From assembly GCA_040954595.2 (NCBI GenBank), contig CM082579.2, positions 15,848,550 to 15,912,549 on the forward strand: 64,000 nucleotides of DNA. The letters run 5' to 3'. The notes under the pieces are model-generated. The model saw only the letters and a program-made list of their open reading frames with translations. It was not told where the DNA came from and searched no databases. Shown here one piece after another: positions 576 through 45,753 of the stretch. This DNA comes from Balanoglossus misakiensis (Eukaryota; Animalia; Hemichordata). The position numbers and the translations under genes are program-made. Position 1 is the stretch's first letter, and every line of letters begins with the position of its first letter.

Positions 576-1388
576 ATGCCGAGAAGAAAAGACCAAACAC
601 CATATGGATCATCAGACTCTTGCCAATCAACACCTCCAGCTGGCACACCACAATCAATAGAAAACCGGCTTGCTGAAATCTGTTCACATGTAAATCACAT
701 ACCGGCACTATTGATCAGTATTGCTGAGCTCAAAGAAAGCCAAAGCACAATAAATTCGTCACTTTAGTTCTTCAACGGACTTGTAGAGGAAGTACGTGGA
801 CGAGTTTCTACTTTGGAGCTTGAAAATAAAGAAGTCAAAGAAACGAATGCACAGCTTTTCACTCGCATCACAGAGCTCGAGAAATCTATGGAAAGTATGA
901 ATCAGTACAATAGACGTGAAAACATTGAACTTCATGGAATTCCTGAAAGTGCAGATGATGGAGAAAATACAGATGCAATCGTAACAAGAGTGCTAAAAAA
1001 GATCGATCCAGGTATCAGTGACCACGACATTGTGATTACCCACAGATTAGGTCAAAAGCATACAGGTGACAATGCTGCACCTACTTTCCCAAGACCAATC
1101 ATTGTGCGATTCTTAAGCAGGAAGAAACGCGACTATATCCACCGGAACAAAAAGAAGCTAGCGACCATTACAACTGGAGATATTGGATATGCCAATCGGA
1201 ACAAAATCTACGTAAATGAAAATCTAACTCCAAAAGCACGCAAACTTTTTAAGATGACGAACGTGAAGCGCAAATCAGCACGCTATAAGTATGCGTGGAC
1301 GCGGAACGGTGAAGTTCTTGTGAAGAAAAGTGAGCAGTCACCTGTACTAGTGATAAGGAATGAGCTGGACCTTGCCAAGATTGTATAA
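576..1388 (+). pseudogene. LINE ORF1 (coiled coil + L1-type RRM/CTD), with in-frame stop at 765-767
   Basis: ORFs 576-767 and 813-1388 are in the same frame. Motifs QYNRRENIELHGIPE, HRLG, RPIIVRF, IYVNENLT and YAWTRNG are typical of CR1/L2-group ORF1. Confidence 0.85.
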
Positions 1389-1430
1389 ACCATCTTGTAG
1401 ACATTTTCTTGGTTTCCCATATATTGCTTC

Positions 1431-8900: not shown

Positions 8901-9423
8901 TCGGACTAACTGCCAACACCTTCAAGACCCGCTTCAACAACCACAAGGACTCATTCAGGAACGCCGCCAAAAAGAACAGTACAGAACTCAGTAAATACAT
9001 TTGGAAACTAAAGGACGAGCACATAGAACACAAAATCACATGGAAAACAATAAAACAAGCTAGCCCCTATACCCCCACCACCAACAGATGCAACCTATGT
9101 CTTTGGGAAAAATATTTCATCATATGCAAACCAAAACTAGCCACACTCAACAAACGTAACGAACTCGTCAGCACATGCCGCCACTCCAGCAAATTCCTCC
9201 TGAAGAATCTGGCCAATCAGCACCCCTCCACACAGCCCCAATCAATACACACTCCCATTCAAATGTAGGCCCATTTGCATATCCACCCTTCCCAATTCCC
9301 TGTTGTCCACACCCTTCACCATCATTCAGGCATCAGTATCTGACGAGTGTAGGCCCCGCTTACACGAAACTGAACAGTAATACACCGCCTATGTCAAAAC
9401 AGCCTTAGTTCCCTTGCACACTC

Positions 9424-9495
<72 letters not shown>

Positions 9496-11628
9496 TAGTG
9501 GACAACAAAGGGACCGAAGAACTGTTTTGTTTGCAAAGGTAATTAGTTCATAGAGTTTATTTTAACTTGTGGTTCTGTGTCAAAGGGACTGAAAAATTTG
9601 TTTGGTAAAGACAGGTGTCCATGTTCAGAAGGTCCGGTTTAGACTGTACAATAAGTTAATTTGCTTACCAATGTGCCATACATAATTTGGTCCTTTACAT
9701 CTGTACTCACGCCGTATTAACCGGCGATGCAGGCGTCGTTGAACGTTTATTGGATCCAGGATCCTAAGAAGTTTTCGTACAGTCTCCCTACAAAAAAAGA
9801 AATCTATTTATTACATATTTTAATAAAATAAGAATAATCTGCAATTTAATTGAAATGAGATTTGTAATAAATCTGGGCCAAAGTTTTTATTCAATGAGTG
9901 AAATAGATTTGACATTTGCACTTCAACTTTAGATTAGCAGGGAGAATTAGGAAACAAGTCCATCACCTGTTATTTTCTTGCCAAGGGAGCTTATTCAAAT
10001 AGCATTTCCCTTACATCAATCAGCCATTTCAAATAAAAGACCCTTGTTGATGATATCAATGAACACTTATGTTTGCATTATTGTTTTTATCATTCCAGTA
10101 TTACAAAATTTTTTTTTTTACCTTTTAACCATCAATTGGTGCTTAGTTCTCAGGATAGCTAGCATTTCATTTGCTCCAACAATGCAGCCAGACCCTGTAT
10201 TCAGTTCTGTCTGTAAATGAATAAAGGAAAGGATGGTTGGATAGATTGATAGATGTGTGAACAAATGAATGAACACATTCAATATTAGAATAGCTGACAT
10301 TCACAGTTGAAAAAATTAGTTAATAAAATGTAACATAAATCGAATACTTTTGAAATTGCTTCTAATCCATGCAAGTGGTAGAACACAAACAACTGACATA
10401 AATGAATTAATTTCCTAGCAACAATGTCCCTCGCATATCTGCCCAAATGACAAAAGGGTGACCAGGAAAATGGAGTTCTTCTGCAAGATGTTCAGAATTT
10501 GATTTTAATTTGTTATACTGAATGTGTGCAATTAAGTCAGACTTGGGAAGTGGTGTCACTAATTAAATGTAGGTTAGGGTAAAGAGCTTAACATACAAGC
10601 ACAGCAGAAACAATGTCATCAAAAGATGACTGTGCTCTTCTCCCTTTTCGATAGAGTCCAAGGTGATGGAGGAATTTGCGCTTGAAGTATGAAAACCTAC
10701 AGAGTCAAAATAAAGTGAGAGTGAGTTGTACACTAAAGGGATAACATAAAAGGAAGAGACTGGTCATTACACAATTTCCAAGTAACAGATAATAAAATAA
10801 TGTAAGTTTACCACTCAAAAGTAAAGTTATTATGTTTTTAATGCTGTTTACCTCAAACGGAATCCATGTTGTTTTACCATTACATAATAAATTAATTTGT
10901 GTGTATAACCATACGAGAAATACTTCTTAATGAGTTCCCTTTGCTCTGTAAGAAAATAATATTCACAAGTGACTTGTGTAAAATTGGCAATCTAACATAA
11001 AAGGAAATTATCTATCTGTTTGCATTAAATGCAGTATTTTGGTTTCAGGTTTTAGGTGTACATGTACCCCTATTCTACAGCTTTGAAGAGCCAACCCCAT
11101 CAAGGAACCATTCTGTTTTTTATCTAAGCATTAAATAGTGGTTTCATATATCCATGTAAATGCTGTTGTTTCATAAGAATTGGCCAGTTATTGTGCTATT
11201 TCCCAATTCATTCTAATGCTAGTTTGCATAGCTAAGTGCCAGTAAACAGTTAATTTGCCAGACTTCACCAACATAATAATAATTCATTGTAGCAATCTAA
11301 CACTGAGTGGGAAATAAATGGGAATTCAATTTCAACAAAATTAATCTGATTATTGCTGAATTTTAAAAGCTGAGAATTTCATCATGTTTAAATGCTGAAC
11401 AAGAAACTGAAATAAACTGAGAACATAATAGTTGCTAGCCTGGTCTCCATACCCTGTGTGTTTTATAGATAGACTCGCACACTAGGTATGGATACCAGGC
11501 TATAGTTGAAATCTTAAGACACAGTAAAGCTTCAAATCTGATCAATGCCTTTCCTTCTTTCAATGTTTAGAAAGAACATGTAAAGTAACGTCATAAAATT
11601 CATAATGAAACTTACCTAGAGTAGCCAT
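4715..11628 (-). CDS. Spliced DDE (integrase-core, IS3EU-like) transposase, N-terminal ~235 aa; later exons not located in the window
   Basis: GT-AG exons with compatible phases: 11616-11628 (tentative), 10852-10945, 10597-10696, 10122-10210, 9669-9787, 5523-5577, 5212-5309, 4715-4851. Spliced product includes ...RRLIRREYRCKGPNYVWHIDGYDKLSPYGFAIHGCIDGFSRRVLWLKVGASNNDP...GCPRILRADHGTE...YGPSTANQ with no stops. Confidence 0.85.
5601..5919. mobile_element. Palindromic MITE / foldback element
   Basis: ATGTCATACATGCCTAAAT...ATTTAGGCATGTATGACAT; arms of about 150 bp are near-perfect inverted repeats around a short (ACT)n spacer. Confidence 0.85.
5918..5972. repeat. (TA)n microsatellite, left flank of the Penelope-like element
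   Basis: Pure TA run. Confidence 0.95.
6078..6140 (-). ncRNA. Type I minimal hammerhead ribozyme in the Penelope 3' UTR / pLTR
   Basis: AGGC-atca-GTGT CTGACGA GTGTAGG-ccccg-CTTACAC GAAA CTG-aa-CAG TA ATAC-acc-GCCT: complete CUGANGA/GAAA core, helices I-III and GUA cleavage triplet. Confidence 0.88.
6200..8362 (-). pseudogene. Penelope RT / GIY-YIG endonuclease ORF (720 codons) with stops at 8252-8254 (TGA) and 6776-6778 (TAA)
   Basis: Single frame from MEPRSFDYSTKNI: ADK, RLINP, FDVVDFYPSI, MGSYDG, LYRDD, FLD, SNHPP; GIY-YIG region IVYQA...YVGLT...RFNNH...CLWEK...LNKRNE. Confidence 0.92.
8430..9268 (+). pseudogene. Inverted duplicate of the Penelope ORF 3' end (thumb/linker + GIY-YIG), same TAA stop at 8690-8692
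   Basis: ORFs 8426-8692 and 8708-9268 are nearly identical to the C-terminal part of the - strand ORF. Confidence 0.9.
9328..9390 (+). ncRNA. Type I minimal hammerhead ribozyme (second, inverted copy)
   Basis: AGGCATCAGTAT-CTGACGA-GTGTAGGCCCCGCTTACAC-GAAA-CTGAACAG-TA-ATACACCGCCT; helix I GTAT/ATAC is fully Watson-Crick. Confidence 0.88.
9427..9493. repeat. (TA)n microsatellite, right flank of the Penelope-like element
   Basis: Pure TA run. Confidence 0.95.
11436..11502. mobile_element. Tiny hairpin MITE
   Basis: TAGCCTGGTCTCCATACC...GGTATGGATACCAGGCTA inverted ends, flanked by similar TAGTTG(C/A) sequences. Confidence 0.55.
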
Positions 11629-12195: not shown

Positions 12196-15041
12196 CAAAT
12201 CACCGGTTGTGATTTTGTCGGCGCCGGTAGATTGAGTAAAGGTGTCGGCAAAAATTTGGTTGTTACCGGCATTTTAGATTACGGCGTCGGCACCCAATGT
12301 GCGTCATATTTTCAGCATATGCGTTCCTATCGTTTGTCTATGGACTTTACCCATGTATTGAGAGAAGTTGTCGGGGGTCCCCAACGGCTTTCCATAACAG
12401 ACACTAGCGTTCGTTAGCAACGGTAATCAAGTCGGATTTCCTTCGGCCTGGCTCTGCAAAAGACCCGACACTCTAGTACAAAGACGTTGGCTAAGTCGGG
12501 CAAACCGAACAGGGAAAGTCACAGCGGGTCAACACTCGACATTTGTTCCGGTAGGACAAATCACTGCATTATTGCCTGTCAATTTATAGAGAAAGCCCGA
12601 ATTTAACCAGGGCGTTTCAAACACCGACGTTAGTTGGGGCACGGCCTGCAGTACTGCCGGGTAAGCTGACATCAGCGTACCGCATATAATGTAGGGGGGG
12701 GGGGGGGAACAGAACGGTTAAATACTACATTTATCAGATATCAGCTAATTTTGGACAATCATCTAAAATGTAAATCATCTTTTCATATTTGGATATCTGA
12801 TGATGTATGACATTTCCATTATATGTAAAAATGGTGCTGATTATAAAAATGCACTCTGAATGAGCTGATTTAATGCAAAATTGCGTTTTATTCGTTTTTG
12901 CACCAAAAAGGTCATTTTTAGGCAAAATATTCTTTATTTTTTTAATTCGGTGACCTGATCATATATAAACAATTGCTTGTATGTTAAAAGTTTTTATGAC
13001 TTTTAAAAGCAGTGACACTGGCGGCATTCAACACGAAAATAACAATTTTAGCCACAATTTGGTCAAAATGGTAAATTTTTGAAAATTACAAAAAATACCT
13101 GTTTTCTACATTTTCGGAAATCTGATGGAGTATAGAATGCTCTTCGTATGTATATATCGATACAAATTCCACAACAGACCGTCTAATTTGGCTCACTGCA
13201 GACAAAATTGCGTTTTACAAAATTTTCCTTGAAAATGTCATTTTTAGAAAAAAAAAAATTAAAAAACCTTTTATCTTCGAATTTGGTGCCCTGATCATAT
13301 ATGACATGTTGATTGTATGTTAAAACTTTCGACCACTCCAAAAATGCAGGGATATTGACGGAATTCAAGAAAAAATAGCCATTTTGGCCATATTTTGACA
13401 AAAATGGTAAATTTTTAAAAAATCATAAAAAATTAACTCTTTTCTTCATTTTCGGAAATATTATGGAGCATGAAGTGTCGTTCTCTTCTAAAAAGTGCTG
13501 CAAATTCCAGAAAAGGCGGTATAATTTGAATCACCCAAGACAAAATTACCATTTTCGACTTTTTTTCGAAATATTGTTTTTTTACAAAATAAATAAGAAT
13601 AAATTCTTTTCTTAGTTTCAAACAGGTAGAGATACTTTCCACACGGGTTTTCTAACATTGAATTCCCGTTCATCAACTCAGATTTCCTACAGCATAAGTC
13701 GGCTAAAACCCTGAGACTTTAGAGCAGAAACAGTTGCACACTGGTAACGTTGAACAAGTCGATTTTTCTACGGCCTGGCTCGGCTAAATCTCCGTCACAA
13801 TATGACAGACACTATCGTACGTTAGCAACGGTGATCAAGTCAGATTTTCTACGGCATGGCTTGGATAAAGCCCCGGCACTAGAGCAGAAACACGCGTACA
13901 GAGACCACGTTGATCTACTCACATTTCCTTCGGCCTGGCACGGCTGATGCCCCGGCACTATATATAGGACACAGACTGGCGTAAGTTAACAACGGTAATC
14001 ACGTCGGGTTTCCTACGGCCTGGCTCAGCTGAAGCCCCGGCGCTCTAGAGCAGAAACAGGCGTACATTGACCACGTTGATCAAGTCAGATTTCCTACGGC
14101 GTGACTCGGCTGGTGCACCGGCTCTATATGACACAGACTGGCGTAAGTTATCAACGGTGATTACGTCGGATTTCCTACGGCCTGGTTTAGCTGAAGCCCC
14201 GGCACTTTAGAGCGGAAACTCGCGTACATTGACCACGATGATCAAGTCAGATCTCCTACGGCCTGGCTCGACTAAAACCCCGGCACACCATGACAGACAC
14301 TAGCGTTCGTTAGCAACGGTGATCAAGTCGGATTTCCTTCGGCCTGGCTCTGCAAAAGACCCGACACTCTAGTACAAAGACGTTGGCTAAGTCGGGCAAA
14401 CCGAACAGGGAAAGTCACAGCGGGTCAACACTCTACATTTGTTCCGGTAGGACTGCATTATTGCCTGTCAATTTATAGAGAAAGCCCGAATTTAACCAGG
14501 GCGTTTCAAACACCGACGTTAGTTGGGGCACGGCCTGCAGTACTGCCGGGTAAGCTGACATCAGCGTACCGCATATAATGTAGGGGGGGGGGGGGACAGA
14601 ACGGTTAAATACTACATTTATCAGATATCAGCTAATTTTGGACAATCATCTAAAATGTAAATCATCTTTTCATATTTGGATATCTGATGATGTATGACAT
14701 TTCCATTATATGTAAAAATGGTGCTGATTATAAAAATGCACTCTGAATGAGCTGATTTAATGCAAAATTGCGTTTTATTCGTTTTTGCACCAAAAAGGTC
14801 ATTTTTAGGCAAAACATTCTTTATTTTTTTAATTCGGTGACCTGATCATATATAAACAATTGCTTGTATGTTAAAAGTTTTTATGACTTTTAAAAGCAGT
14901 GACACTGGCGGCATTCAACACGAAAATAACAATTTTAGCCACAATTTGGTCAAAATGGTAAATTTTTGAAAATTACAAAAAATACCTGTTTTCTACATTT
15001 TCGGAAATCTGATGGAGTATAGAATGCTCTTCGTATGTATA

Positions 15042-15302
15042 TGTAGTAAATACCGGTTACTAACCTGGTAGGTACTACGGGTTGTCTTATTCCGGGCCAC
15101 AGAGTTTTGCTTGGTACTGGTAGTCAGTCCTGGTAGCGTGTTGCTCTGATGCTGGTCCGGGTCGTTCTGGTTCTGATAGTTGAGAAACGTGGGTAAAAAC
15201 CAGTAGCACAGGTGCAGGGCATTCCGTAGTGCAATTACGTCAGAGGCGTCCCACCTGTACAGCAGGGCGCCACCAACGGCCAGAAGCCCACAAATTACTA
15301 CA
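15042..15302 (-). repeat. 3' LTR (261 bp)
   Basis: TGTAGTAA...TTACTACA; one mismatch seen versus 26149-26409. Confidence 0.96.
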
Positions 15303-15323
15303 CTCTTCCCACTTTTCTTTTTT
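15303..15323 (-). other. Polypurine tract
   Basis: - strand AAAAAAGAAAAGTGGGAAGAG directly abuts the 3' LTR. Confidence 0.9.
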
Positions 15324-15424
15324 GGCAGGATGGTCAACCTAGGGATCTCAAAAGGCTAGAGAAGTTAACGTATTTTTCCCACCCCTGCAATCTGCCAACC
15401 TCATGGTCTTGGCGAGATTGATCC

Positions 15425-18199
15425 CTAGTGATATAGACGTCTGGTGTTACGGACAGTTGCTTCAAGAAGGTGCACTAGATCAGTCCCCCTTGAGTTAGCA
15501 ACAGCCACGGCCACATCCCCTATAAGAGCTGGAGTACTGGTTACATCACGAGGGCCCCCAAGATACGGCGAATCTGTTTCTATTAACAGACGCTCGATGG
15601 GCACCTCCTTCAAAGCTCGAATCTGGCAACGGTCAAATTTGGTGGTCGTGATGGAGAAACCGAAGTAACAATTCTTGAAGCGCTTCGACCACCTTTGAAC
15701 AGTGTTGACCGTACCAGTAAAATTGTGGATATGTATTTTCTGCCGTGGCGAACACCATTCCTGTACTAATTGCAATGCTTGGCAATGCACATCTGACCCA
15801 TACTGGTCCCCATATGGCCCTCTAATGTGCAGGACTAAGGGTTTCTCAGGCACACACATGGCAAGTGCTCGAGAGAGAACCCTGTCTTGGGCGCTCCCGT
15901 ATTTACTTGGCTCTGTGCGGTCGAGACCCACCTCCCCAAGGGCGGCTACCTGTGTGCTCGTGACAAGCCGCTTGAGGGCTTTAAAGGTCCTTTCGTCGGC
16001 TCTTGGAGCTTTCCTTGGATGGATCCCGATGGCGATACTCCAACCTTTGGGCCGGTTCAAATCCATGGGGTAGTACTCCGGATCGCAAAAGACCTCGACG
16101 CCCCCAATGATGTTGACAGGAAAATTCGCCCTTGGGCCATTATGCCAGTTAACCAAAGCTACTGATGTTGCAGGGCAGTCCCTACCGCGAAATCGAACCA
16201 GTGTTCGGTCAAGATGAAAGTGGGAATCCATGGCTTCCAATAGACTGTCTGATTGTAGATAATCCTGTGCTGTCCCCTGTAACTCTTGCTCAATAGGTTG
16301 GTCAGCTTGGGATTCTATTGTAATTGAGTCCAGTATCACGTATTCAACCGGGAGCTCAATTTCTGATGGTGGGATCGGGACTGAGTCCTGTATCACGTGA
16401 TCAACAGGTTGCTCAGCCTGTGGGATCCTTTCAGTACAGTCTAATGGAATTTCTTTCTCTACTTGATCACCCCATGAGATTCCCTGGGACGTGGAGTCCT
16501 GTATCACGGATTCAACAGGTTGTTCCATTTCTCCCATACCTATAATCATTGCCAAGTCTTGGTGTGCGTCCTCCACATGGATCGGACTATTTCCTGAGGC
16601 TACAGGTGAATATGTGATCTCCCTCGCATGAGTTGGAGATTGGAACTCACCTTCATTTTCGGAAACCATTTCCTGGTCGACACAGGAGCCAGTCTCCCCC
16701 CTAGGGGTAGGTGACCGCGGCTCGCCGTGATCTGCCTCAGGATTCTCTGTTACCATTTCCTGGTCTGCACTTGGCGAGCAGGAGACAGTCTCCCCCGTAA
16801 GGGTAGGTGACTGAGGATCTCCGTGCTCTGCCTCGGGGCCTTCCAGTTCCGGCATCGGATGACATGGTGAATGCGAGGTGATCTCCGCCACTGGGGTGGG
16901 AGACCGGGACTCACCATGCTCCCTTGGGGGTACCACGGGTTGGAAGGCTTCCCGCTGCTCCTCAGTCAGGTGCGAAAGGAGGATGACGAGAATCCTCCAA
17001 TGCAGCAGGACGGCTGGTGAATTCGGTGGGTGCAGCGAGAATCGTCGTGGTACGGCCCATCCGCTGGTCTGGCACAGTCGCTTCATCATCAGACAGTTGG
17101 CTTCGGTGAGCGCAGAGGATGCTGGGACTTCTTCCAAGTGATGTTGCAGGAAGTACTCCAGCAGCTTGGTGACAGTTCCTCTGGGGCCCAAAACCCAGCC
17201 CGCCAGCTTCAGCAGGGCATGAGTAACATCAGCTGTCTGCATGATAAGGGGGTTTTCCTGTAGACGGGGGTCGATATGGTAGAAGAAGCAGTGCCGTTTG
17301 AGACGTTTGGAGGTCTGCCCACATCCTGGAATAGGGCAGGTACATGAGCGGCTGTTGGTAGATTTTCTGCTTCTTCTACCCCTACAGGAATTGGTCGCCG
17401 CAGTCGTGGTGGTCTTTGACTTCGGCACCCCCTTCGGCTCCTGTGCCATCCATACAACGGAGCGTCGCCGCCGCTTCCCGTCACGCTGTATGGTCACCTC
17501 CAAACGAGATTCCTCACCCCGCTCTCGCTTCTTTGGTTTAGTGGCCGCCATCTTCTGCGTTCCTCTCCGTGGCTGGCTTGATGTCTTTCGTGGTGGCTCA
17601 CGGGGGGTACTTTTCCGTGGCTCTGCCAGGGGTCGCCGCGCAGCTACTGCTGAGTACAATTCACGGGGCGCTGCAGAAGATGGTTGTGTCGATGTTCTTC
17701 GGGGTGAGGATGCCCGCGATGTTGAGGCGATGGAGGTGACTGGGTCCCTGCCTTGCATGGTGTCTTCTACTACAACCGTCTCCCCCGACTTCTTCAGCAG
17801 GTGCTTGACAGTCGGGAGATCGGGCTGCGTCTGTAGGCGAACATCACGGCAGGGTCCAGACGTGACGGTACTGCTGGGACGGGACTTCCGTTGCGGGATC
17901 CTGTTCTTATGCGGATCCCGATGGAGAAGATGCTTGTACAGCCATTCCTCGGAGAAGATCACATCGGCTTCGCGGCGTGTAGTCTCCACCCAATGCCAAT
18001 GGCCTCTCCGAGATGCTAGTTGATACTGGCGTAACAGCATCCTCTCCTTTTCAGGGAGCGTGACCTTGGCCAGCCCGATGCCGTAGGTGAGGTCGAGTGG
18101 TGGAAGCAGAATCCGTGTCCGGTCTGCCTCCACCACTTCTTGCCAGGTCATATGCTGCTTCTTAGGGCGATGTCCCCCGCGATACCGCTGGGAGTCCAT
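15425..18199 (-). CDS. Retrotransposon ORF3: basic/low-complexity region, C2H2-like finger, Pro/acidic repeats, C-terminal TatD-family metal-dependent nuclease
   Basis: Open for 924 aa from MDSQRY. TatD motifs DSHFHLD, IGIHP, ALGEVGLD, PLVLHIR, IHIHNFTG, YFGFS, LLIETDSPY, NTRRLY (about 15428-16240). CPIPGC...HCFFYH finger. Confidence 0.88.
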   Translation of the reverse strand: MDSQRYRGGHRPKKQHMTWQEVVEADRTRILLPPLDLTYGIGLAKVTLPEKERMLLRQYQLASRRGHWHWVETTRREADVIFSEEWLYKHLLHRDPHKNRIPQRKSRPSSTVTSGPCRDVRLQTQPDLPTVKHLLKKSGETVVVEDTMQGRDPVTSIASTSRASSPRRTSTQPSSAAPRELYSAVAARRPLAEPRKSTPREPPRKTSSQPRRGTQKMAATKPKKRERGEESRLEVTIQRDGKRRRRSVVWMAQEPKGVPKSKTTTTAATNSCRGRRSRKSTNSRSCTCPIPGCGQTSKRLKRHCFFYHIDPRLQENPLIMQTADVTHALLKLAGWVLGPRGTVTKLLEYFLQHHLEEVPASSALTEANCLMMKRLCQTSGWAVPRRFSLHPPNSPAVLLHWRILVILLSHLTEEQREAFQPVVPPREHGESRSPTPVAEITSHSPCHPMPELEGPEAEHGDPQSPTLTGETVSCSPSADQEMVTENPEADHGEPRSPTPRGETGSCVDQEMVSENEGEFQSPTHAREITYSPVASGNSPIHVEDAHQDLAMIIGMGEMEQPVESVIQDSTSQGISWGDQVEKEIPLDCTERIPQAEQPVDHVIQDSVPIPPSEIELPVEYVILDSITIESQADQPIEQELQGTAQDYLQSDSLLEAMDSHFHLDRTLVRFRGRDCPATSVALVNWHNGPRANFPVNIIGGVEVFCDPEYYPMDLNRPKGWSIAIGIHPRKAPRADERTFKALKRLVTSTQVAALGEVGLDRTEPSKYGSAQDRVLSRALAMCVPEKPLVLHIRGPYGDQYGSDVHCQALQLVQEWCSPRQKIHIHNFTGTVNTVQRWSKRFKNCYFGFSITTTKFDRCQIRALKEVPIERLLIETDSPYLGGPRDVTSTPALIGDVAVAVANSRGTDLVHLLEATVRNTRRLYH

Positions 18200-18234
18200 G
18201 ATCTGTACAAGAAAGAATAAGAGACATGATGAGG

Positions 18235-20570
18235 TTACACTGAAACTGCGCTTATTTCGCTTGGTTTGCAGTTGGGACAAGAAAACAGTGCTTTTTTCTT
18301 AATTTCGGTTGGTGTAACATTCACACACGCTCCATGAAACCATTCATAGCAATAATCACACTGGATCATAAGTTTCCCATCATCAGGTTTCCTGCAAAGG
18401 CAATATACTTCACCCATTCCTGCGCTGTCCTTAAGTAAGGTCTTCCTAAAGGTTACTATCCAGCGAGGAAGCTCTTTATCCTGGCAAGGCTTTAGCCGAT
18501 CGTGATGGGCGGTCCAAACCTCTCTTCGCAATTTGATGCGGAAGAGATAGGGTGTGATTTTGGTGATGATGACCCCTGGTCCTTTCCAAGGTGGGCACAG
18601 TTTACGGCATTTGCCTTTCGTGGATCCGGTATCCAACAGATATACTGGATCCCCGACCTTGAAGGACTGCTTGTTCACTCGGAGGTCGTAATCACGTTTC
18701 ATTCTTTCTTGTGTGGTCTTCAGTATTTCCCGCGCTGTCTCATGAGAATTCATTATGGCCTCCTCCAATTCGTACACATACCCCTCATGAGATTGGTCAG
18801 TGTTTGTCCTGGGAGGCCGGAATACAAGATCAGCGGGCTGGTTTATTTCCCTACCTAACATCATCCGGTTGGGCGTAAAACCAGTGCTGCGGTTGACTGA
18901 AGAGCGGAGAGCTCCGGCGATCTGTGAGAGAAATTTATCCCATTCTTTCTGTGACTTGATGTAGCATCTGATTGCGTTCATCAAAGTGCGATTCTGCCGT
19001 TCCGCCTGGCCATTAGCAGATGGTCTGTAAGAAGTGGTTCTTGTTTTATGGATATGAAGAATCTCACAAATCACTGAAAATAACTGACTTTCAAAGTTTC
19101 TTCCCTGGTCAGTGTGAATTTCAAATGGATACCCGAACCTGGTAAAGAATTCAGCTACTGCGGCGTGTGCTGTTTCCTCAGCATTTTGGGTTGGCAGCGG
19201 TATACATTCTACCCACTTGGTGAATTGATCTACCATTACCAGGATATAATCATTACCTCGAGGTGTCTTGGGTAACGGCCCTAGGAAATCCAAGTGAACT
19301 CGTTCCATCGCTGCCCCCGCATGAAATAGGGTCAGCTGATGTCGGTGGTGTCTGTGTGCTTTCTTGTCGTGATTGCAAATTGCACACATTGTGACATACT
19401 TGCGGATGTCGTGGGACATCCTATACCAATGGTATTTGGTCCTGATTCTGGCTTGAGTGCGCTGTATTCCCTGGTGCCCACAAGATGGAATATCATGATT
19501 CAACCGTATAACTTCATCTTTCATGGTATTAGGGATGACTAGTTGTTTGGTGTTTTCATCTGTGGCCGACTTTCTCCACAGTACTCCCTCCTCAATGAAG
19601 TATAGGTCACGGTTGATCCAATAATTCTTTGCTGCAGGGCTGGAGAGTCTCAGCTCTCCTTCCTCAGGAACTTTCCCAGTTTCAAGCCATGTGATGAGAA
19701 TCCCCAGTGTTTTATCAGTCTGCTGTGCCTGTTGGTATTCTTTGTGAGAATATCCTAGGATGGCTGTTCCCAGTTTAGTGGAATCCTCTCTGGATAGTAT
19801 GCAGACTTGTACAGGATCCGGAAAGTGGGAAATTTCGAGGTTCGAATGAGGCACGTCGATTAGTTCGTCCTGGACTGTGTCACGGGTGATTCCGCAGCAA
19901 GTTAATAGACCCAAGTTACCTCCAGGGTCCCATGGCCAGGTCTCTTCATCTTGAATTGCTGGTTGTATTTGTGGGTCCATGCTACCGGTACATTGGTTCA
20001 CCACATATGGCCCTTCTTTTTGGTGGAGTTGGCTGTTCCTGTGTTTGTCTCTGGGTTCAGCCATGGTAAGGGGAATTACATCATCCACCTCATTGATGAA
20101 CGGGCTCCAGTTTCGATGTGCTCTGCTGCAATAGTTGCATCCCCCGCAAGGTAAGGATTCCAATTTTGTTCCATGCTCAAAATTGGTGCAGGCACTTTGC
20201 TCGGGTAATCTTGACAGGGAGTCGGCGTTGATGTGTTGTTTTCCTGGTCGGTGTTGCACAGTAAAGTTGTACTGGCTTAGTTCTTCTAGCCAGCGAGCTA
20301 ATTGGCCTTGTGGTTCTTTGAATCGTATTAGCCATAGCAAACTGTGATGATCTGTCCGTACCAGAAATTTATTACCAAGCAAGTAGTATCGAAACTGCCG
20401 GGTGAACCTTACGACTGCCAGCAATTCTTTTCTTGTGGTGCAGTACCGTCTCTGTTCAGGTGTCAGGGCATAACTTCCATAAGAAATTGTTCTCTCCTTG
20501 CCGTTCTGTATCTGGGATAACTCAGCTCCGATGGCAAAGTCTGAGGCATCCGTGTCTAGAATGAAGTTAT
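18235..20570 (-). CDS. pol: Pol 3' part: RNase H, integrase (HHCC + DDE) and C-terminal PHD finger
   Basis: ILDTDASDFAIGAELSQ, TTRKELLA, RTDHHSL, ADSLSR; HDIPSCGH..CAIC; VHLDFLGP, HTDQG, GQAERQN; YCLCRKPDDGKLMIQCDYCYEWFHGACV...CPNC. Confidence 0.93.
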
Positions 20571-21257
20571 AATAATAATAATAGTTTATTCAGATACAAT
20601 ATAGGCCACCGGCCTCTGTGTATACAAACTAGTACGTCACCTGAAATCTCCGGAGGACGCAAAAATGTAAAATAATTGTCGAATTACATCATGGCCATGA
20701 AAAAGGAAAGAAACGAATCACACTTCAGATCGTTTTTTCGTGGCAAAAAATACAAATTTTGACAGATTACGCAAGATACTTGGGTTACATGATTGCATGA
20801 GGAGGTAACATTTATCGTAGGTTGGCATAAAATAGTAATATCTAGGAATATACTTGACTCGTAAATCCGCATAGAATGGACACACAATACAAAAGTGAAA
20901 TTCATCCTCTATCTCATTACCATTACAATAGATACATGTTCTATCTTCACGATTATTGCGTAATCGCCTGTCAGCTTCGATACGTAAAGCGTGCGCTGAT
21001 ATTCTAAATCTACAAAGTGCCTCTCGAAAGTGCGACTTTTCAATCATGTTGAAATACAATTCTCGTCGAAAAATATGTTTGAACTTTCTGTAAGAGTCTA
21101 GTTTAGGAAACAAACGTAGACTAGTATGCCAGTTTTGAACATCTAGATCATGACAACGCTGTTTGAATAAGGAAATAAAATTGACATTGTTACCAACCCC
21201 CTGATTAACCCATGCCTCACCCATTCCATAGGAAAAAAGTAACATTTTCACATCGTG
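20571..21257 (-). mobile_element. 5'-truncated LINE (RT C-terminal region with CCHC finger, RTE-X-like) inserted in pol
   Basis: 13-bp TSD AGAATGAAGTTAT at 20558-20570 and 21258-21270; AATAAA + (ATT)n tail; ORF 20718-21251 with CIYC...EDEFHFCIVCP. Clade assignment is tentative. Confidence 0.88.
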
Positions 21258-23380
21258 AGAATGAAGTTATCCTTTGTATTGGGCAAGGTCAGAACAGGGG
21301 CAGCGGTGAGTGCTTTCTTGATGTCCTCAAAAGCTTGATGTTGCTCATACCCCCAGGCGAATGGTTTCTTCCCGGTTACACTGTACAGAGGTACCGCTAA
21401 CTTGGCATAATCCTTGATGAAGGCGCGATGGTAGTTCGCAAATCCTGCAAATTTTTCCACGTCCTTCGTGTTGATAGGGATTGGCCATTCTTGGATCATC
21501 CGAATAGATTGATCTTCAAGAGATATTCTGTTTCTACCAACTTTCCTAGCCAGGAAACTTACTTCCTGTTGGAATAACTCACACTTTCTTGGCTTGAGTT
21601 TCAGTTGGTACTTCCGTAGTCGTTTGAAGACTTCCCGGAGATTTTTAAGGTGTTCTTCGAAGCTTGATCCGAGCACCATTATATCATCCAGAAATGCCAG
21701 TACGATGTCCCAAGTTAGGCCCCTTAGTACTAGGTTCATCACTCTGGAGAAAGTAGCAGGTGCGTTGCACAGACCAAACGGCATTCGGGTAAATTCGTAC
21801 AAACTGTATTTGGTGGTGAAAGCCGTTTTCTTGCAGTCGGGTGGATTAATACTTATCTGCCAGTATGCCGAGTTGGCGTCCAACTTGGAGAACCATAGAC
21901 ATCCTGATAGAGTGTCCATACAATCCTCCACCAATGGCAGCGGAAAAACGTCCTTTACGGTGATGTTGTTTAGGGCTCGATAATCCACACACCAACGCAC
22001 GCTTGCATCTCGTTTTCGCACTAGAACTGGTGCCGAAGCCCATTCGGAGATTGATGGCCTTATAACTCCGGCATTCAGCATTTTCTTTAAGTGGGCTTCT
22101 TCTTCCCCTGCAAAACACATTGGAGTGCGCCGTAGACGTTGCTTTATTGGTGGATTGTCTTTTGTGTCGACGCTATGTGTGATTGCAGTGAAATTTCCCA
22201 GATCAAATTCGTCCTTGGCGAAAACATCTTCGTAATCGAACAGAAGTTTATGTAGTTGGGTTTGTTCATCTGCTTGAAGATGACTGCAGGATCTTTCAAA
22301 CAGATTTCCTAAATGTGAAGGTAGCCCGCCTACCGGCTGAGGGCGTACTTCAGTCTTCTGTTGGGCGTCAGGTGATGGGACGGTGATCACCTCCACTTCT
22401 GTAGCTGATGCGATAGGATCCTTGCTCTTCAGAGTTATATAATTCTCCGTCGGGTTGACTAAACAAACCTTAGGTGATTGTTCCCCCGAGTGAAGTGTCC
22501 TGGGCATCATTACTTTCAATCCCTGGGTTGGTTCTACCAAATAGTCGGTTAGATCCGTATCGAGTAAACAGGATATTCTGACCACACTATTCGGTGGGAT
22601 GATTGTCCGTCGCTTCAAAGTTACCTTTGCCACTTTCGGCGAATGATCCCTCTGTCCAAGGGTCATAGGTATGTTTTCCTCCCCCAAATGGAGCCAGTTG
22701 TTACTCATGTTGATGGTTGCTCCATTTGCTTGTAGGAAATCAACTCCCAGTAGCATTTCGTCGCCTATTGGGGCTACGTATATATCGGCATTGAAGACGG
22801 CACGTCCTAGCTGGATGTCAACGGGTCCGACCAGGTTGGCTTTCATGGTTAACTGTCTTCCAGCTGTTTGCATGGTAACTTCCCGCAATATTGGAGGTTT
22901 TACTCGCAGACTGTTGTACAGTTGGTCAGAGATAATAGTGACTTCTGCGGCGGTATCGATGATAGCGGTAGCGGACTGGTCTCCAATTTTTGCTGGGATG
23001 CTATACATTGAACTGGACACAAGTTGGTTAATGACAACCATAGGCATGTCATTAGCTTCGGATGTTGCCATACTGGTCTTTGACGATTTTGTCTCTTCCA
23101 CTGTTGAGTTGGTCACATCTGCGCAATGTGTACCATCATCAGTTGGAGTTGGTATAGTCGTTGTATACACATCTGCACAATGTGTATTGACATCAAGTGT
23201 TACCGATTCAGCTGATGGCGATGGCACGTCAATATTACAGTTGCGATCGCCCTCCGTGGAAGCGTTGAGGCCATAGGTTATGGGTTGTTGGGTCAAACTT
23301 TGGCCTCTGGGCTTGACCCTTTGGTGTTTAATGGACTGGCCGGCGCTGTTTCCTTCTTTTCTGATGTTCCATGGGGACAT
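21258..23380 (-). CDS. pol: Pol 5' part: aspartic protease and reverse transcriptase
   Basis: AIIDTAAEVT, LLGVDFL, CVDYRALN, LDANSAYWQ, MPFGLCNAPATF, FLDD. Removing the 700-bp LINE+TSD rejoins it in frame to the 3' part. Confidence 0.94.
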
Positions 23381-24966
23381 TCCCTCTTAAAATGGCCTAT
23401 CTCGCCGCACCCATAGCAACCACGGCTTCTCGGAGATGGGGATCAGTACCTTGATGTCTGCTGCGTTGTCACCACTTTGGTTAATTCGGCCAGTTGGGTG
23501 GTGACAGTCTGCAAAGTTGCGCTGATTGCCGACATCTGCGTCTCCAGCCTCGACATCCTCCCCTGCATCTCAGTTCCTCCGTCTTTGCTTCTCGGGCGGA
23601 TGGGAGCTCTTTCAGGAGAGGGTGATTGTTTTCGCTCATACCTGGAGACAGATCGTGCTTCGATGTTGGTTTTCGGGTATTCCGGATCAGGACTTACAAA
23701 TCGTACTTCCCGCCTCTGCGATCGGATGCCATAGATTGCTTGATGATTATACTGGAATCTTTTGACAGTATCGATCGCTGCTTCGATGGAAGTTGGACGC
23801 TGATTTGCTGCCCATTGGCCTGCTTCTCGATCACAACATCCTTGGCAAAAGCGCATCACAGCTTGAAGCTCTATGGTGGCATCGCTGCTTTCTTGAAATG
23901 CCTGCATCGCAAGTGAATAAACCCTGTCCGCCCATTCTTCTAATTTCTCCTCGGTGTTTTGTCGGATCTGGGCGAACTGAAGCTGACTGGATTCTGGAAT
24001 CTCTTTCAAGCCGAATCGTTTCTCCAGTTTTTTTAGCAGCTCGTGATAGCTGACGTCTGCGTTTTTCTGGAGGATCCTGGTATAAACTTCACTTGCTTTC
24101 CCCTCTAAACACCAGCACAGATAATTTTTGCATTCATTGAATGACATGTCCTGCATCTCGGCAAATTTCGTGAATTTTACCTGATATGCCTGCCAGTTTC
24201 CGGAGCCATCGTAGATTAGCGTCCTGGGAACTGACATTGGGATGTGACGATGACTTGGTCTGTCCATCCGGTTATCATGCTGGTAGTAGGGTTGAGTTCT
24301 GGGAGGAGCGAATTCTGTTGGATAATGGCCATCATAATAATCCGGTGATGCACCCGCTCGTGGTCTGGACACATTCACCCGTGATGGACGATAATTCTGC
24401 TCATCTTCAGGCCAGGTCGCATATCGCTGTTCATCGCGAACACTTCGTGGATATGGTCTACCATACGCAGGAGCATCTGGCCTGTACGCAGGATGGAATG
24501 AACTATCATACCCCCGAGAGTCGGTATGATGTTGACTTACCCTATCCTGCGTATAGTCTGGTTCGTCAAATCGCCTCGATCGAATAGGTGCTTTGGGTTG
24601 TTGATGTCGTGAAGGTCGTTGAACATGTCTGCTTTCGCGTTCTTTCGTGACCTTGTCAATCCTTTCCATCCATTCCTTCATGCTATCTTCATCACTATCC
24701 TTCCCGCTGTCTTCCTCATCTTCCCAGAACGGGGCGAGATGGGTAGTTGTGTTCATGGATGGTTTGGCTGAAGCACCTGGTGGGTCGAAGTCGGCCATCT
24801 CCGTGAATTCTTCGGATGGTTTGAACCTAGGAATACTGCATACCATCTCATATGTTACATAGCCATGTCGTTCACGTAATCGCAGAATCGCCTTGGCTAT
24901 TTTCCGTCCCACTCCAGGTAGACATTGAAGAGTTCCTAGAGTACTGGTGTTGACGTTGATTTTCAT
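23293..24966 (-). CDS. gag: Gag with N-terminal helix-hairpin-helix domain and C-terminal CCHC knuckle; one in-frame TGA at 23443-23445
   Basis: MKINVNTSTLGTLQCLPGVGRKIAKAILRLRERHG; capsid-like YDGSGNW...LEGKA...RQNTEEKLEEWADR; frame continues past TGA into CYGCGEIGHFKREC...PLNTKG. Confidence 0.88.
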
Positions 24967-26135
24967 GATGGCGCGTTAGAAATTATTGAGATGGAAGTTG
25001 CAGATACCGTTGTCGGAAAATATTACCCACACAAGGACAGAGTAATATTTAACAAAGTGATATTACTCGTAATATTTACTGAGCAATACCCAAATTGATC
25101 AGTTTGTCACAAGAATAATCAACGACAATGACCAATCAATTATATCACAACAATAATAGAACCCGCAATTATACAGAGTAATATAATGTGATAATAAGAC
25201 TAGTACGACTGATATCAATAATACAATAATTGGAATGGCTCACAATAATAAAACTCGCAATAATACTGAGTAATACAATGCGACACCAAATATTATTGAT
25301 ATAGCGAATAATTGAACAGTTTCAACACTTACCAATTGCTGAGGAATTACAGTTCTGTACTGATACTGTGTGGTACAACTAGTAAAAATGCGAAACAAAG
25401 CGGAATTTGTTAAAGCGAAACTTTTCAGAAGTAAAACAACAGATAAAAGACAAGTCCGAAAGCTGGAACTTGTCCGCACAAAAAGTACGTAAAATTATGA
25501 CGAAAGGTGCGGTGTACAGAACTGCCACAAAAAATGGCTTCTTTGACGAAATGGCTTCCTCGTCAATGCAATGGTGGCACCAATACTAGCAGAAAGTTAC
25601 TTTCCAAGCTATCCGTACACACACAACGGCAGTATAACGGGCTAGGAAGTATAACTGCAAATCTTACCTTGCCGTGTTCGGAAGTTCGCCGTACACACAA
25701 AAAATACGGTAAGACAAAGTACACGTAAAACAACACAGAAATAAGTTGTGAAACTTTTCCTTGAAACGTGCACAGAAAAAAAACGGCACAGTGTAGCGGA
25801 AAATTCCTCTCACTGAATTTCTTGAACTTGGCCCCAGCTGTCCGAACTTCAATAAATATTACAAGCTTTACCGGAACAACTGGAGATTCGTTCCCAGTTT
25901 TATCTCGACTTCACCTAGTTCTCTGTCTCCCACCAGAAAAACTAATGAAGACGGTTTCTTGGTGCAAGTGTTGAAAACTGAAAGCACTTGGGCGTCCGCA
26001 CTACTCCTATAAGTTTCAAGCGGAAAGCCGCGACGCAACTTTAACGATAGCGAGTACTCCGACTACTTATCCTCAAAAATCGGCAAAAAGTTACCAACGG
26101 AGTTTTTTCACCTTTTCCCCACTAGGGTTGAAAAG

Positions 26136-26146
26136 TCGCAGCGCCA
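26136..26146 (-). other. Primer binding site (TGGCGCTGCGA, probably tRNA-Ser)
   Basis: Starts 2 nt inside the 5' LTR boundary with TGG; resembles the complement of a tRNA-Ser 3' end. Confidence 0.7.
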
Positions 26147-26148
26147 AT

Positions 26149-26409
26149 TGTAGTAAATACCGGTTACTAACCTGGTAGGTACTACGGGTTGTCTTATTCC
26201 GGGCCACAGAGTTTTGCTTGGTACTGGTCGTCAGTCCTGGTAGCGTGTTGCTCTGATGCTGGTCCGGGTCGTTCTGGTTCTGATAGTTGAGAAACGTGGG
26301 TAAAAACCAGTAGCACAGGTGCAGGGCATTCCGTAGTGCAATTACGTCAGAGGCGTCCCACCTGTACAGCAGGGCGCCACCAACGGCCAGAAGCCCACAA
26401 ATTACTACA
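26149..26409 (-). repeat. 5' LTR (261 bp)
   Basis: Near-identical to 15042-15302, followed by TATA TSD. Confidence 0.96.
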
Positions 26410-29400
26410 TATATATCGATACAAATTCCACAAAAGACCGTCTAATTTGGCTCACTGCAGACAAAATTGCGTTTTACCAAATTTTCCTTGAAAATGTCAT
26501 TTTTAGAAAAAAAAAAAAAAAACCTTTGTTCTTCGAATTTGGTGCCCTGATCATATATGACATGTTGATTGTATGTTAAAACTCTCGACCACTCCAAAAA
26601 TGCAGAGATATTGACGGAATTCAAGAAAAATAGCCATTTTGGCCATATTTTGACAAAAATGGTAAATTTTTAAAAAATCATAAAAAATTAACTCTTTTCT
26701 TCATTTTCGGAAATATTATGGAGCATGAAGTGTCGTTCTCTTGTAAAAAGTGCTGCAAATTCCAGAAAAGGCGGTATAATTTGAATCACCCAAGACAAAA
26801 TTGCAATTTTTCGACTTTTTTTCGAAAAATTGTCTTTTTTACAAAATAAATAAGAATAAATTCTTTTCTTAGTTTCAAACGGGTAGAGATACTTTCCACA
26901 CGGGTTTTCTAACATTGAATTCCCGTTCATCAACTCAGATTTCCTACAGCATAAGTCGGCTAAAACCCTGAGACTTTAGAGCAGAAACAGTTGCACACTG
27001 GTAACGTTGAACAAGTCGATTTTTCTACGGCCTGGCTCGGCTAAATCTCCGTCACAATATGACAGACACTAGCGTACGTTAGCAACGGTGATCAAGTCAG
27101 ATTTTCTAAGGCATGGCTTGGATAAAGCCCCGGCACTCTAGAGCAGAAACACGCGTACAGAGACCACGTTGATCAAGTCTGATCTCCTACGGCTTTGCTC
27201 GACTAAAACCCCGGCACACTATGACAGACATTAGCGTTCGTTAGCAACGTTGATCAAGTCAGAATTCCTACGGCATGGCTTGGCTAAAGCCCTGGCACTC
27301 TAGAGCAGAAACACGCGTACAGAGACCACGTTGATCTACTCACATTTCCTTCGGCCTGGCACGGCTGATGCCCCGGCACTATATATAGGACACAAACTGG
27401 CGTAAGTTAACAACGGTAATCACGTCGGGTTTCCTACGGCCTGGCTCATCTGAAGCCCCGGCACTCTAGAGCAGAAACAGGCGTACATTGACCACGTTGA
27501 TCAAGTCAGATGTCCTACGGCGTGACTCCGCTGGTGCACCGGCTCTATATGACACAGACTGGCGTAAGTTATCAACGGTGATTACGTCGGATTTCCTACG
27601 GCCTGGTTTAGCTCAAGCCCCGGCACTTTAGAGCGGAAACACGCGTACATTGACCACGATGATCAAGTCAGATCTCCTACGGCTTGGCTCGACTAAAACC
27701 CCGGCACACTATGACAGACACTAGCGTTCGTTAGCAACGTTGATCAAGTCAGATTTCCTACGGCATGGCTTGGCTAAAGCCCTGGCATTCTAGAGCAGAA
27801 ACACGCGTACAGAGACCACATTGATCTACTCACATTTCCTTAGGCCTGGCACGGCTGATGCCCCGCACTATATATAGGACACAGACTGGCGTAAGTTAAC
27901 AACGGTAATCACGTCGGGTTTCCTACGGCCTGGATCAGCTGAAGCCCCGGCACTCTAGAGCAGAAACAGGCGTACATTGACCACGTTGATCAAGTCAGAT
28001 TTCCTACGGCCTGGTTCGACTAAAACCCCGGCACACCATGACAGACACTAGCGTTCGTTAGCAACGGTGATCAAGTCGGATTTCCTTCGGCCTGGCTCGG
28101 CAAAAGACCCGACCCTCTAGTACAAAGACGTTGGCTAAGTCGGGCAAACCGAAGAGGGAAAGTCACAGCGGGTCAACACTCGACATTTGTTCGGGTAGGA
28201 CTGCATTATTGCCTGTTAATTTATAGAGAAAGCCCGAATTTAACCAGGGCGCTTCAAACACCGACGTTAGTTGGGGGCACGGCCTGCAGTACTGCCCGGT
28301 AAGGTGACATCGGCGTACCGCATATAATGTAGGGGGGGGGGGAGAAACAGAACGGTTCAATACTACATTTATCAGATATCAGCTAATTTTGGACAATCAT
28401 CTAAAATCTAAATCATCTTTTCATATTTGGATATCTGATGATGTATGAAATTTCCATTATATGTAAAAATGGTGCTGATTATAAAAATGCACTCTGAATG
28501 AGCTGATTTAATACAAAATTGCGTTTTATTCGTTTTTGCACCAAAAAGGTCATTTTTAGGCAAAACATTCTTTATTTTTTTAATTCGGTGACCTGATCAT
28601 ATATAAACAATTGCTTGTATGTTAAAAGTTTTTATGACTTTTAAAAGCAGTGACACTGGCGGCATTCAACACGAAAATAACAATTTTAGCCACAATTTGG
28701 TCAAAATGGTAAATTTTTGAAAATTACAAAAAATACCTGTTTTCTACATTTTTGGAAATCTGATGGAGTATAGAATGCTCTTCGTATGTATATATCGATA
28801 CAAATTCCACAAAAGACCGTCTAATTTGGCTCACTGCAGACAAAATTGCGTTTTACCAAATTTTCCTTTAAAATGTCATTTTTAGAAAAAAAATAAAAAA
28901 ACCTTTGTTCTTCAAATGTGGTGCCCTGATCATATATGACATGTTGATTGTATGTTAAAACTTTCGACCACTCCAAAAATGCAGAGATATTGACGGAATT
29001 CAAGAAAAAATAGCCATTTTGGCCATATTTTGACAAAAATGGTAAATTTTTAAAAAATCATAAAACATTAACTATTTTCTTCATTTTCGGAAATATTATG
29101 GAACATGAAGTGTCGTTCTCTTGTAAAAAGTGCTGCAAATTCCAGAAAAGGTGGTATAATTTGAATCACCCAAGACAAAATAACCATTTTCGACTTTTTT
29201 TCGAAAAATTGTCTTTTTAACAAAATAAATAAGAATAAATTATTTTCTTAGTTTCAAACGGGAAGAGATACTTTCCACACGGGTTTTCTAACATTGAATT
29301 CCCGTTCATCAACTCAGATTTCCTACAGCATAAGTCAGCTAAAACCCTGACACTCTAGAGCAGAAACAGTTGCACACTGGTAACGTTGAACAAGTCGATT

Positions 29401-44641: not shown

Positions 44642-45753
44642 TTAATACAAAATTGCGTTTTATTCGTTTTTGCACCAAAAAGGTCATTTTTAGGCAAAAC
44701 ATTCTTTATTTTTTTAATTCGGTGACCTGATCATATATAAGCAATTGCTTGCATGTTAAAAGTTTTTATGACTTTTAAAAGCAGTGACACTGGCGGCATT
44801 CAACACGAAAATAACAATTTTAACCACAATTTGGTCAAAATGGTAAATTTTTGAAAATTACAAAAAATACCTGTTTTCTACATTTTCGGAAATCTGATGG
44901 AGTATAGAATGCTCTTCGTATATATATATCGATACCAATTCCACAAAAGACCATCTAATTTGGCTCACTGCAGACAAAATTGCGTTTTACCAAATTTTCC
45001 TTGAAAATGTCATTTTTAGAAAAATAAAATAAAAAAACCTTCGTTCTTTGAATTTGGTGCCCTCATCATATATGACATGTTGATTGTATGTTAAAACTTT
45101 CGACCACTCCAAAAATGCAGAGATATTGACGGAATTCAAGAAAAAATAGCCATTTTGGCCATATTTTGACAAAATGGTAAATTTTTAAAAAATCATAAAA
45201 AATAAAACTCTTTTCTGCATTTTCGGAAATATTATGGAGCATGAAGTGTCGTTCTCTTGTAAAAAGTGCTGCAAATTCCAGAAAATGTGGTATAATTTGA
45301 ATCACCCAAGACAAAATTACCATTTTCGACTTGTTTTCGAAAAATTGTCTTTTTTACAAAATAAATAAGAATAAATTCTTTTCTTAGTTTCAAACGGGTA
45401 GAGATACTTTCCACACGGGTTTTCTAACATTGAATTCCCGTTCATCAACTCAGATTTCCTATAGCATAAGTCGGCTAAAACCCAGACACTCTAGAGCAGA
45501 AACAGTTGCACACTGGTAACGTTGAACAAGTCGATTTTTCTACGGCCTGGCTCGGCTAAATCTCCGTCACAATATGACAGACACTAGCGTACGTTAGCAA
45601 CGGTGATCAAGTCAGATTTTCTACGGCATGGCTTGGATAAAGCCCCGGCACTCTAGAGCAGAAACACGCGTACAGAGACCACGTTGATGAAGTCTGATCT
45701 CCTACGGCTTGGCTCGACTAAAACCCCGGCACACTATGACAGACACTTGCGTT

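Follow-up and report, generated by a model that had tools for sequence, protein, structure and literature searches.

What is a nuclease gene doing in the place where some retrotransposons carry env? Retrotransposons with long terminal repeats (LTRs) are taught as gag-pol elements, sometimes with env in addition. The question is raised by a 64,000-nucleotide stretch of the hemichordate Balanoglossus misakiensis (contig CM082579.2, positions 15,848,550 to 15,912,549; hereafter the window), which holds an 11.4-kb Gypsy element on the minus strand (15042-26409) with a third open reading frame (ORF3) that ends in a TatD-type nuclease domain. A prediction made from the letters of the window alone had proposed that this frame is nuclease cargo borne by the element. 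We find that a Gypsy clade with a PHD finger at the end of its integrase has long kept ORF3 as an accessory gene under selection, and we tentatively propose that ORF3 may clear R-loops in the nucleus.

A TatD nuclease gene between pol and the 3' LTR

ORF3 runs from ATG to TAG at 18199-15425 (minus strand) and encodes 924 aa with no internal stop. It starts 35 nt past the pol stop (18235) and ends ~100 nt ahead of the polypurine tract at 15323-15303, which abuts the 3' LTR; the intact frame thus lies where the original prediction had placed it. Five positions of ORF3 differ in both of two DNA runs; four of these change a residue and none creates a stop. Its parts are as follows:

15425..18199, minus strand: ORF3, 924 aa, with a basic N-terminal part, a finger/helical domain, an acidic linker and TatD (open frame, Pfam, alignment, model)
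16940..17359, minus strand: C2H2-type finger (C288, C293, H303, H308) and helical domain ending in LxHWR (conservation, model confidence)
15428..16237, minus strand: TatD domain of HxH (group II) type, with H660, H662, E756, H791, H825, E874 and D876 (Pfam, alignment, fold)

The C-terminus of ORF3 belongs to the TatD family by Pfam and by fold. Its last 270 residues match Pfam TatD_DNase (E 8.4e-35, 120.8 bits for a cut-off of 27), and all five predicted motifs are present, DSHFH at 658, GEVGLD at 755, LHIR at 790, HNFTG at 825 and ETDSPY at 874. In an alignment-based AlphaFold2 model (70-row alignment), the predicted local distance difference test score (pLDDT) is mostly above 90 across the TatD part; folded from its single sequence, the whole 924-aa protein gave a pLDDT of 35. 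The closest structure was E. coli YcfH (Z 29.6, root-mean-square deviation 2.4 Å over 246 residues), nine TatD structures scored at Z 25.8-29.6 and the next row at Z 18.5. Foldseek likewise returned TatD structures at E ~1e-13, with S. aureus TatD at E 1.5e-14. These structure matches are filled by the TatD part and are silent on the finger/helical fold. In the scheme given in the accessible text of PMC10085689, the N-terminal HxH and the Glu/His/His/Glu/Asp metal site assign this TatD to group II.

ORF3 is not env-like, as had been predicted, because its highest 19-residue Kyte-Doolittle mean is 1.38 and its N-terminus is not hydrophobic. No env family was matched in Pfam, and the hydropathy scan, the only test applied here, revealed neither a signal-like start nor a membrane anchor.

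Beyond what the original prediction stated, ORF3 contains a second conserved and well-folded domain at residues ~281-420. The finger ligands are kept among aligned relatives (C288 in 90/91, C293 in 91/92, H303 in 89/93 and H308 in 95/95), and pLDDT is 80-98 in 10-residue blocks of the AlphaFold2 model. No Pfam family matches this domain, and a search of the ESM Atlas returned unnamed clusters only (0.89-0.90).

Linkage, co-divergence and selection across a Gypsy clade

Relatives of ORF3 were collected from 1.84 billion protein representatives clustered at 50% identity, which gave at least 200 clusters at E ≤1e-30 and 1,024 at E ≤1e-10; cellular TatDs are surely among the larger set. Of the 150 best clusters, most match in two stretches, the finger/helical domain and TatD. 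Thirty representatives were looked up and most are nameless; the named ones come from Saccostrea, Mya, Ostrea, Argopecten, Pinctada, Haliotis, Lytechinus, Acanthaster and Ptychodera, and all are annotated 'uncharacterized' or 'hypothetical'. Among these database relatives, genomic order could be read in one, an Acanthaster planci gene model (LOC110990915) in which integrase is followed by PHD, finger and TatD in a single fused protein, as they are ordered in the window. Pfam detected no integrase fusion in the 61 longest of 152 relatives, and a weak search for long pol-TatD fusions, limited to 1,930-5,000 aa, found none.

Genomic context was read in two Sedimenticola metagenome bins (G001 and G002), both searched whole, and in 40 further stretches. 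The bins contain many Gypsy contigs of eukaryote type, and we infer that these are host DNA. In G001/G002, all 14 contigs with a PHD-ended integrase carry the finger/helical and TatD domains directly downstream on the same strand, and the position recurs in many diverged families. Conversely, integrase is on the contig at 14 of the 18 TatD loci of the clade, and the other four contigs begin inside or just before ORF3. ORF3 is a single long frame opening from a Met near the pol stop in 10 of the 14 linked contigs; one of the clade's elements (L097) is complete, with 1,187-bp ends 99.7% alike and gag, pol and ORF3 all open. Among 12 elements without PHD and with at least 2 kb downstream, drawn from loci sampled earlier and from the 20 that ranked next among 126 integrase matches, TatD was present in one (L227). 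A whole-bin TatD search of G001/G002 found no further TatD-bearing contig, and 301 genomes from the same family as G001 yielded no new host contigs when searched; one metagenome scan with the TatD alignment and a viral scan returned prokaryote-type TatDs only, which served as outgroup.

Some clade proteins are filed under bacteria. P0017 stands in NCBI as a TatD family hydrolase of Sedimenticola sp., and P0170, P0196, P0258, P0269 and P0272 are assigned to symbiotic bacteria, for example as a DDE integrase of Ca. Thiodiazotropha. These are likely host DNA in metagenome bins.

TatD and integrase have diverged together. In an integrase tree of 40 rows, the 13 PHD+TatD rows are monophyletic (support 100/100); the tree keeps columns at 60% fill, so that the PHD columns (13/40 rows) should have dropped out. 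For these 13 elements, 9 of 10 splits are common to the integrase and TatD trees, which none of 10,000 shuffles reached, and 8 of 11 when L227 is added. A Mantel comparison of the distances agreed, more weakly than the split count (rho 0.57, p 0.004). The ratio of nonsynonymous to synonymous substitution (dN/dS) is 0.10-0.17 for TatD in five of eight pairs, far below 1, the other three being saturated at synonymous sites, and 0.24-0.43 in the rest of ORF3. The seven metal-site residues are intact at 18/18 clade loci, at 4/4 loci of a second lineage (below) and in 113 of the 153 database proteins whose TatD stretch is long, many of them fragments or gene models. We are highly confident of this set of observations, namely position, intact metal site, linkage, co-divergence and purifying selection, and with the TatD profile and fold they agree with the proposal of element-borne nuclease cargo.

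The same data bear on the simplest rival, that this copy picked up a host TatD mRNA neutrally and as a single event, which could appeal to the fact that, in the host, this very family is known from the window copy alone. Linkage in 14/14 contigs, the common splits and the low dN/dS together reject it, and the extra conserved finger/helical domain argues against it too. Barring misassembly of related contigs, it is refuted, and we give it next to no weight.

TatD is not the sole occupant of the ORF3 slot. A second, shorter ORF3 type (~500-590 aa, finger and TatD) stands at L227, L206, L208 and L228, in a lineage without PHD, with a dN/dS of 0.14-0.16. Six further loci (L237, L238, L242, L243, L245 and L246) have a different ORF3 downstream of pol with a C2H2-like finger near its start, and some of these give coiled-coil-like matches; no likeness was found between the fingers of other-lineage ORF3s in the same bin and the TatD-linked finger. 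Across the Gypsy lineages of the bin, finger proteins seem to be common in this slot. Behind another Gypsy pol, L103 has an antisense ORF of 1,007 aa (7210-10233, minus strand) with no Pfam match, and a Gypsy ORF of L100 (3-2768) has knuckle, protease and integrase with no match to reverse transcriptase or RNase H.

This variety is one argument for a conflict factor, in which the nuclease would destroy the RNA-DNA intermediates of competing retroelements or remove nucleic-acid signals used in host sensing or silencing. The number of clusters at 50% identity fits such a role, and so does tempo: between the same elements the mean tree distance is 2.8 for TatD and 1.19 for integrase, a roughly twofold rate, and the N-terminal part diverges faster still. 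However, no sign of positive selection is seen in either part of ORF3, and the window copy has itself been hit by a long interspersed nuclear element (LINE); we rate this role as unlikely.

The host element, its expression and its surroundings

The other parts of the element and of its insertion are:

26410..26413, no strand: target-site duplication TATA, with its other copy at 15038-15041; the empty site is found in 10 other satellite units
26149..26409, minus strand: 5' LTR, 261 bp, with ends TGTAGTAA...TTACTACA and one mismatch to the 3' LTR
26136..26146, minus strand: primer-binding site TGGCGCTGCGA, 2 nt past the 5' LTR
25328..25667, minus strand: a pair of GTAAG sites in the 5' leader, at 25667 and 25332, as candidate splice donors (consensus match only)
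23293..24966, minus strand: gag, with an N-terminal helix-hairpin-helix, capsid and zinc knuckle (Pfam HHH_3, PNMA, Retrotrans_gag)
21258..23386, minus strand: first part of pol, with protease, reverse transcriptase and the start of RNase H (Pfam)
20571..21257, minus strand: nested 5'-truncated LINE fragment of 687 nt, with AATAAA, a (TTA)n tail and a 13-bp duplication (junctions)
18235..20570, minus strand: second part of pol, with RNase H, integrase (H2C2, rve) and a C-terminal PHD finger at ~18268-18402 (Pfam)
18203..18223, minus strand: splice-acceptor-like pyrimidine tract and CAG, 3 nt ahead of the ORF3 ATG (sequence)
15303..15323, minus strand: polypurine tract adjoining the 3' LTR
15042..15302, minus strand: 3' LTR, 261 bp (LTR pair)

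Paired LTRs with TG...CA ends, primer-binding site, polypurine tract and short target duplication are those of a Ty3/Gypsy element, as is the pol order protease-reverse transcriptase-RNase H-integrase, interrupted in the window and unbroken in L096, L097 and L099; the primer-binding motif also follows an LTR-like end in L099. The insertion is young. Its LTRs are identical at 260 of 261 positions, and contigs of the two DNA runs skip 11,372 nt at the insertion, that is the element plus 4. Contig depth in the two runs is ~300 and ~1,200 for the element and ~470 and ~1,440 for the flank; depth is not copy number and these values were not used.

Both gag and pol are interrupted in this copy; ORF3 is whole. 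An in-frame TGA at 23445-23443 interrupts gag ahead of the zinc knuckle, and the gag of L096, L097 and L099 aligns through this stop in a single frame. The LINE fragment, with its 13-bp duplication at 20558 and 21258, splits pol within RNase H. The best PDB matches of the PHD finger are PHF2, PHF8, CXXC1, SPP1, DIDO and BPTF (E 1e-13 to 1e-10), and PHD fingers of this PHF2/SPP1/BPTF type, as well as those of PHF8, CXXC1 and DIDO, read H3K4me3. At the Gag N-terminus, the helix-hairpin-helix is also found in the PHD clade (L099, L097, L217, L224, L220, L222 and L096); it is weak in L231 and absent from the other loci scanned, with a small profile that had one faulty row and with many contigs lacking the gag start.

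ORF3 is likely translated in the manner of env from its own spliced mRNA, to judge from the signals at its start. A strict acceptor signal (CAG within 3 nt of an ATG, at least 10 of 15 pyrimidines before it and no more than 200 nt from the pol stop) is present in 11 of 16 elements vs 5 of 165 control windows inside ORF3, under a rule fixed after looking; with a looser rule, after which the strict one was picked, the counts are 13/16 and 37/165.

The env slot and the env-like acceptor could also suggest that the TatD fold persists for binding or in place of env, with no enzymatic part to play. But the seven metal-site residues are intact in 22/22 element loci, and in 12/12 ORF3s the highest 19-residue hydropathy is 0.92-1.6, with a signal-peptide-like start in none; a non-enzymatic role is therefore quite improbable.

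Elsewhere in the window, the element and other insertions are hosted by a tandem array (12392-63300) of ~1.9-2.4-kb satellite units, every one of them containing a block of 81-nt subrepeats; tRNA and Rfam searches of this array gave no match. One of these insertions (42809-44645) is 1.8 kb long with 652-nt inverted repeats, TTAA on both sides and AG...CT ends, and we take it to be Kolobok-like. At 32689-36852 the satellite is broken by a 4.2-kb stretch with a 70-nt tandem repeat and without a long ORF. Outside the array, a LINE lies at 768-4383 (plus strand), its ORF1 matching Baculo_FP_2nd and its endonuclease-reverse transcriptase ORF2 continuing in another frame. The element at 6039-9429 has inverted arms of 1 kb at its ends, which are 99% complementary, and holds a reverse transcriptase-like ORF as well as an ORF of 186 aa in two copies facing opposite ways; its proteins match no Pfam family at E 0.01, and it is presumably Penelope-like, with a GIY-YIG-like motif.

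Origin, proposed role and known systems

From which TatD does the ORF3 domain descend? SDFCDP occurs in only one of the eight TatDs aligned in the PMC10085689 supplement, human TATDN2, and C538 is named as TATDN2-specific in the accessible text of PMC10711561. ORF3 of the window has FCDP at residue 704, and CDP is found at 18/18 clade loci, in 117/153 database proteins and in 0/98 prokaryotic or viral TatDs. Because of this motif, we lean to TATDN2, and ORF3 TatD is likely derived from the animal gene. A 125-row tree, which contains no cellular TATDN2, parts the element TatDs from the prokaryotic ones.

According to what could be accessed of PMC10711561, the human TATDN2 enzyme breaks down the RNA of R-loops and shows little activity as a DNase. 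This, with the PHD finger of the clade and the Gag helix-hairpin-helix, the last two suggesting a chromatin setting, is why we propose a role at R-loops. The nuclease is predicted to act in the nucleus, where it would degrade the RNA strand of R-loops formed at the template or the target site of the element itself and so would aid transcription or integration. Altogether, an old, spliced, TATDN2-derived nuclear accessory nuclease that clears R-loops is a possible reading of ORF3, which we hold tentatively and with somewhat less than even confidence.

Several observations weigh against it. The TATDN2 origin rests on one motif, which is absent from the second ORF3 lineage (0/4). HCF, the other cysteine called TATDN2-specific, is present in 72 of the 98 prokaryotic or viral TatDs; the position of C656 has Asn in the window copy, Cys in 16/18 clade loci and Cys in 86/98 prokaryotic or viral TatDs, so that it is not diagnostic of TATDN2. 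The best PDB matches of ORF3 TatD are to bacterial YcfH, in a list without TATDN2. R-loop binding by TATDN2 needs that protein's own long N-terminal region (PMC10711561, as far as accessible), and a basic cluster resembling a nuclear localization signal occurs in 6/12 ORF3s, a count without control. The window element sits within AT-rich satellite and not near a gene. ORF3 is broken in its N-terminal half in 4 of the 14 linked contigs, which come from two assemblies and perhaps one host species; outside these, linkage consists of the window and one gene model. Finally, L231, sister to the PHD+TatD clade in the integrase tree (94/91, the L227 lineage being next but one, 89/97), looks complete (268-bp ends) without ORF3, and the gene is thus dispensable for close kin; with L231 in between, the tree fits a single gain and a loss as well as two gains.

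The original prediction had put forward processing of cDNA as a role, and this we keep as a rival. ORF3 would be a DNase or apurinic/apyrimidinic (AP) endonuclease trimming or repairing cDNA ends, abasic sites or integration gaps, like TATDN1, TATDN3 and YcfH. The intact HxH group II site and the structural match to YcfH speak for it, together with the 3'-exonuclease and/or AP-endonuclease activity of TATDN1, TATDN3 and three E. coli paralogs described in the accessible part of PMC10085689. Nevertheless, cDNA processing is demoted because the sequence leans to TATDN2, an R-loop RNase rather than a DNase (PMC10711561, accessible text), and a separate spliced product, unlike gag-pol, would not be packaged by default. 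It seems to us improbable.

A wider form of the R-loop reading, which we consider doubtful, supposes that marine invertebrates harbour an ancient Gypsy clade, so far undescribed, with a chromatin toolkit (the Gag helix-hairpin-helix, the histone-reading PHD of integrase and a spliced zinc-finger/TATDN2 nuclease), whose own R-loop nuclease would let it escape silencing or eliminate rival retroelements. If true, this would be the first case of a retrotransposon whose accessory protein is dedicated to resolving R-loops, and many 'uncharacterized' TatD genes annotated in molluscs and echinoderms would be transposon genes, as would some TatD genes credited to bacterial symbionts. Whatever its role, an intact nuclease kept through deep divergence means that the clade must gain something from it, and points to a step or a conflict of the retrotransposon cycle that has gone unrecognised. 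Hundreds of natural variants of a TATDN2-like enzyme are also on offer in this gene; the human protein, difficult to purify, is under study as a target in cancer (PMC10085689 and PMC10711561, accessible text). The gene is a warning, too, that apparent TatD expansions in marine invertebrate annotations, and some TatDs filed under symbionts, are transposon cargo.

How does ORF3 compare with known systems? No TatD in a retrotransposon was found in the open-access literature searched (Repbase, GyDB, Dfam, most subscription journals and bioRxiv supplements lying outside it), nor in the accessible parts of PMC6238403, PMC6431247, PMC6338049 and PMC12709183. Like the env of errantiviruses and retroviruses (PMC5408684, accessible text), ORF3 lies between pol and the polypurine tract with a predicted acceptor just before its own ATG; unlike env, it has no signal peptide, transmembrane anchor or likeness to fusion proteins, and an enzyme fold instead. 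With human TATDN2 (PMC10711561 and PMC10085689, accessible text) it has in common the HxH site, a long low-complexity N-terminal part, a C-terminal TatD and CDP, and E593, E705 and D707 of TATDN2 correspond to E756, E874 and D876 of ORF3; however, TATDN2 is a cellular gene, and no finger/helical domain is shown to be common to both.

The nearest parallel comes from bdelloid rotifers. In the Juno and Vesta LTR retrotransposons, as described in the accessible text of PMC5408684, ORF3 encodes a DEDDy 3'-5' exonuclease or a GDSL esterase, and ORF3s are typically expressed from spliced messages. Enzyme cargo in the env slot is therefore already known. The two systems are alike in being Gypsy-type, with a non-env enzymatic third ORF after pol, intact catalytic residues, no transmembrane segment and a function that is predicted. 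They differ in fold, a TatD TIM barrel in the window vs the RNase D-like DEDDy exonuclease of Juno and Vesta, and TatD is fused to a finger/helical domain and paired with a PHD-ended integrase. In addition, TatD ORF3 is under strong purifying selection and has co-diverged with integrase, whereas the rotifer ORFs are reported in that text with no significant departure from neutrality within the genome, and the host range of the TatD ORF3 relatives (molluscs, echinoderms and a hemichordate) is wider than that of Juno and Vesta.

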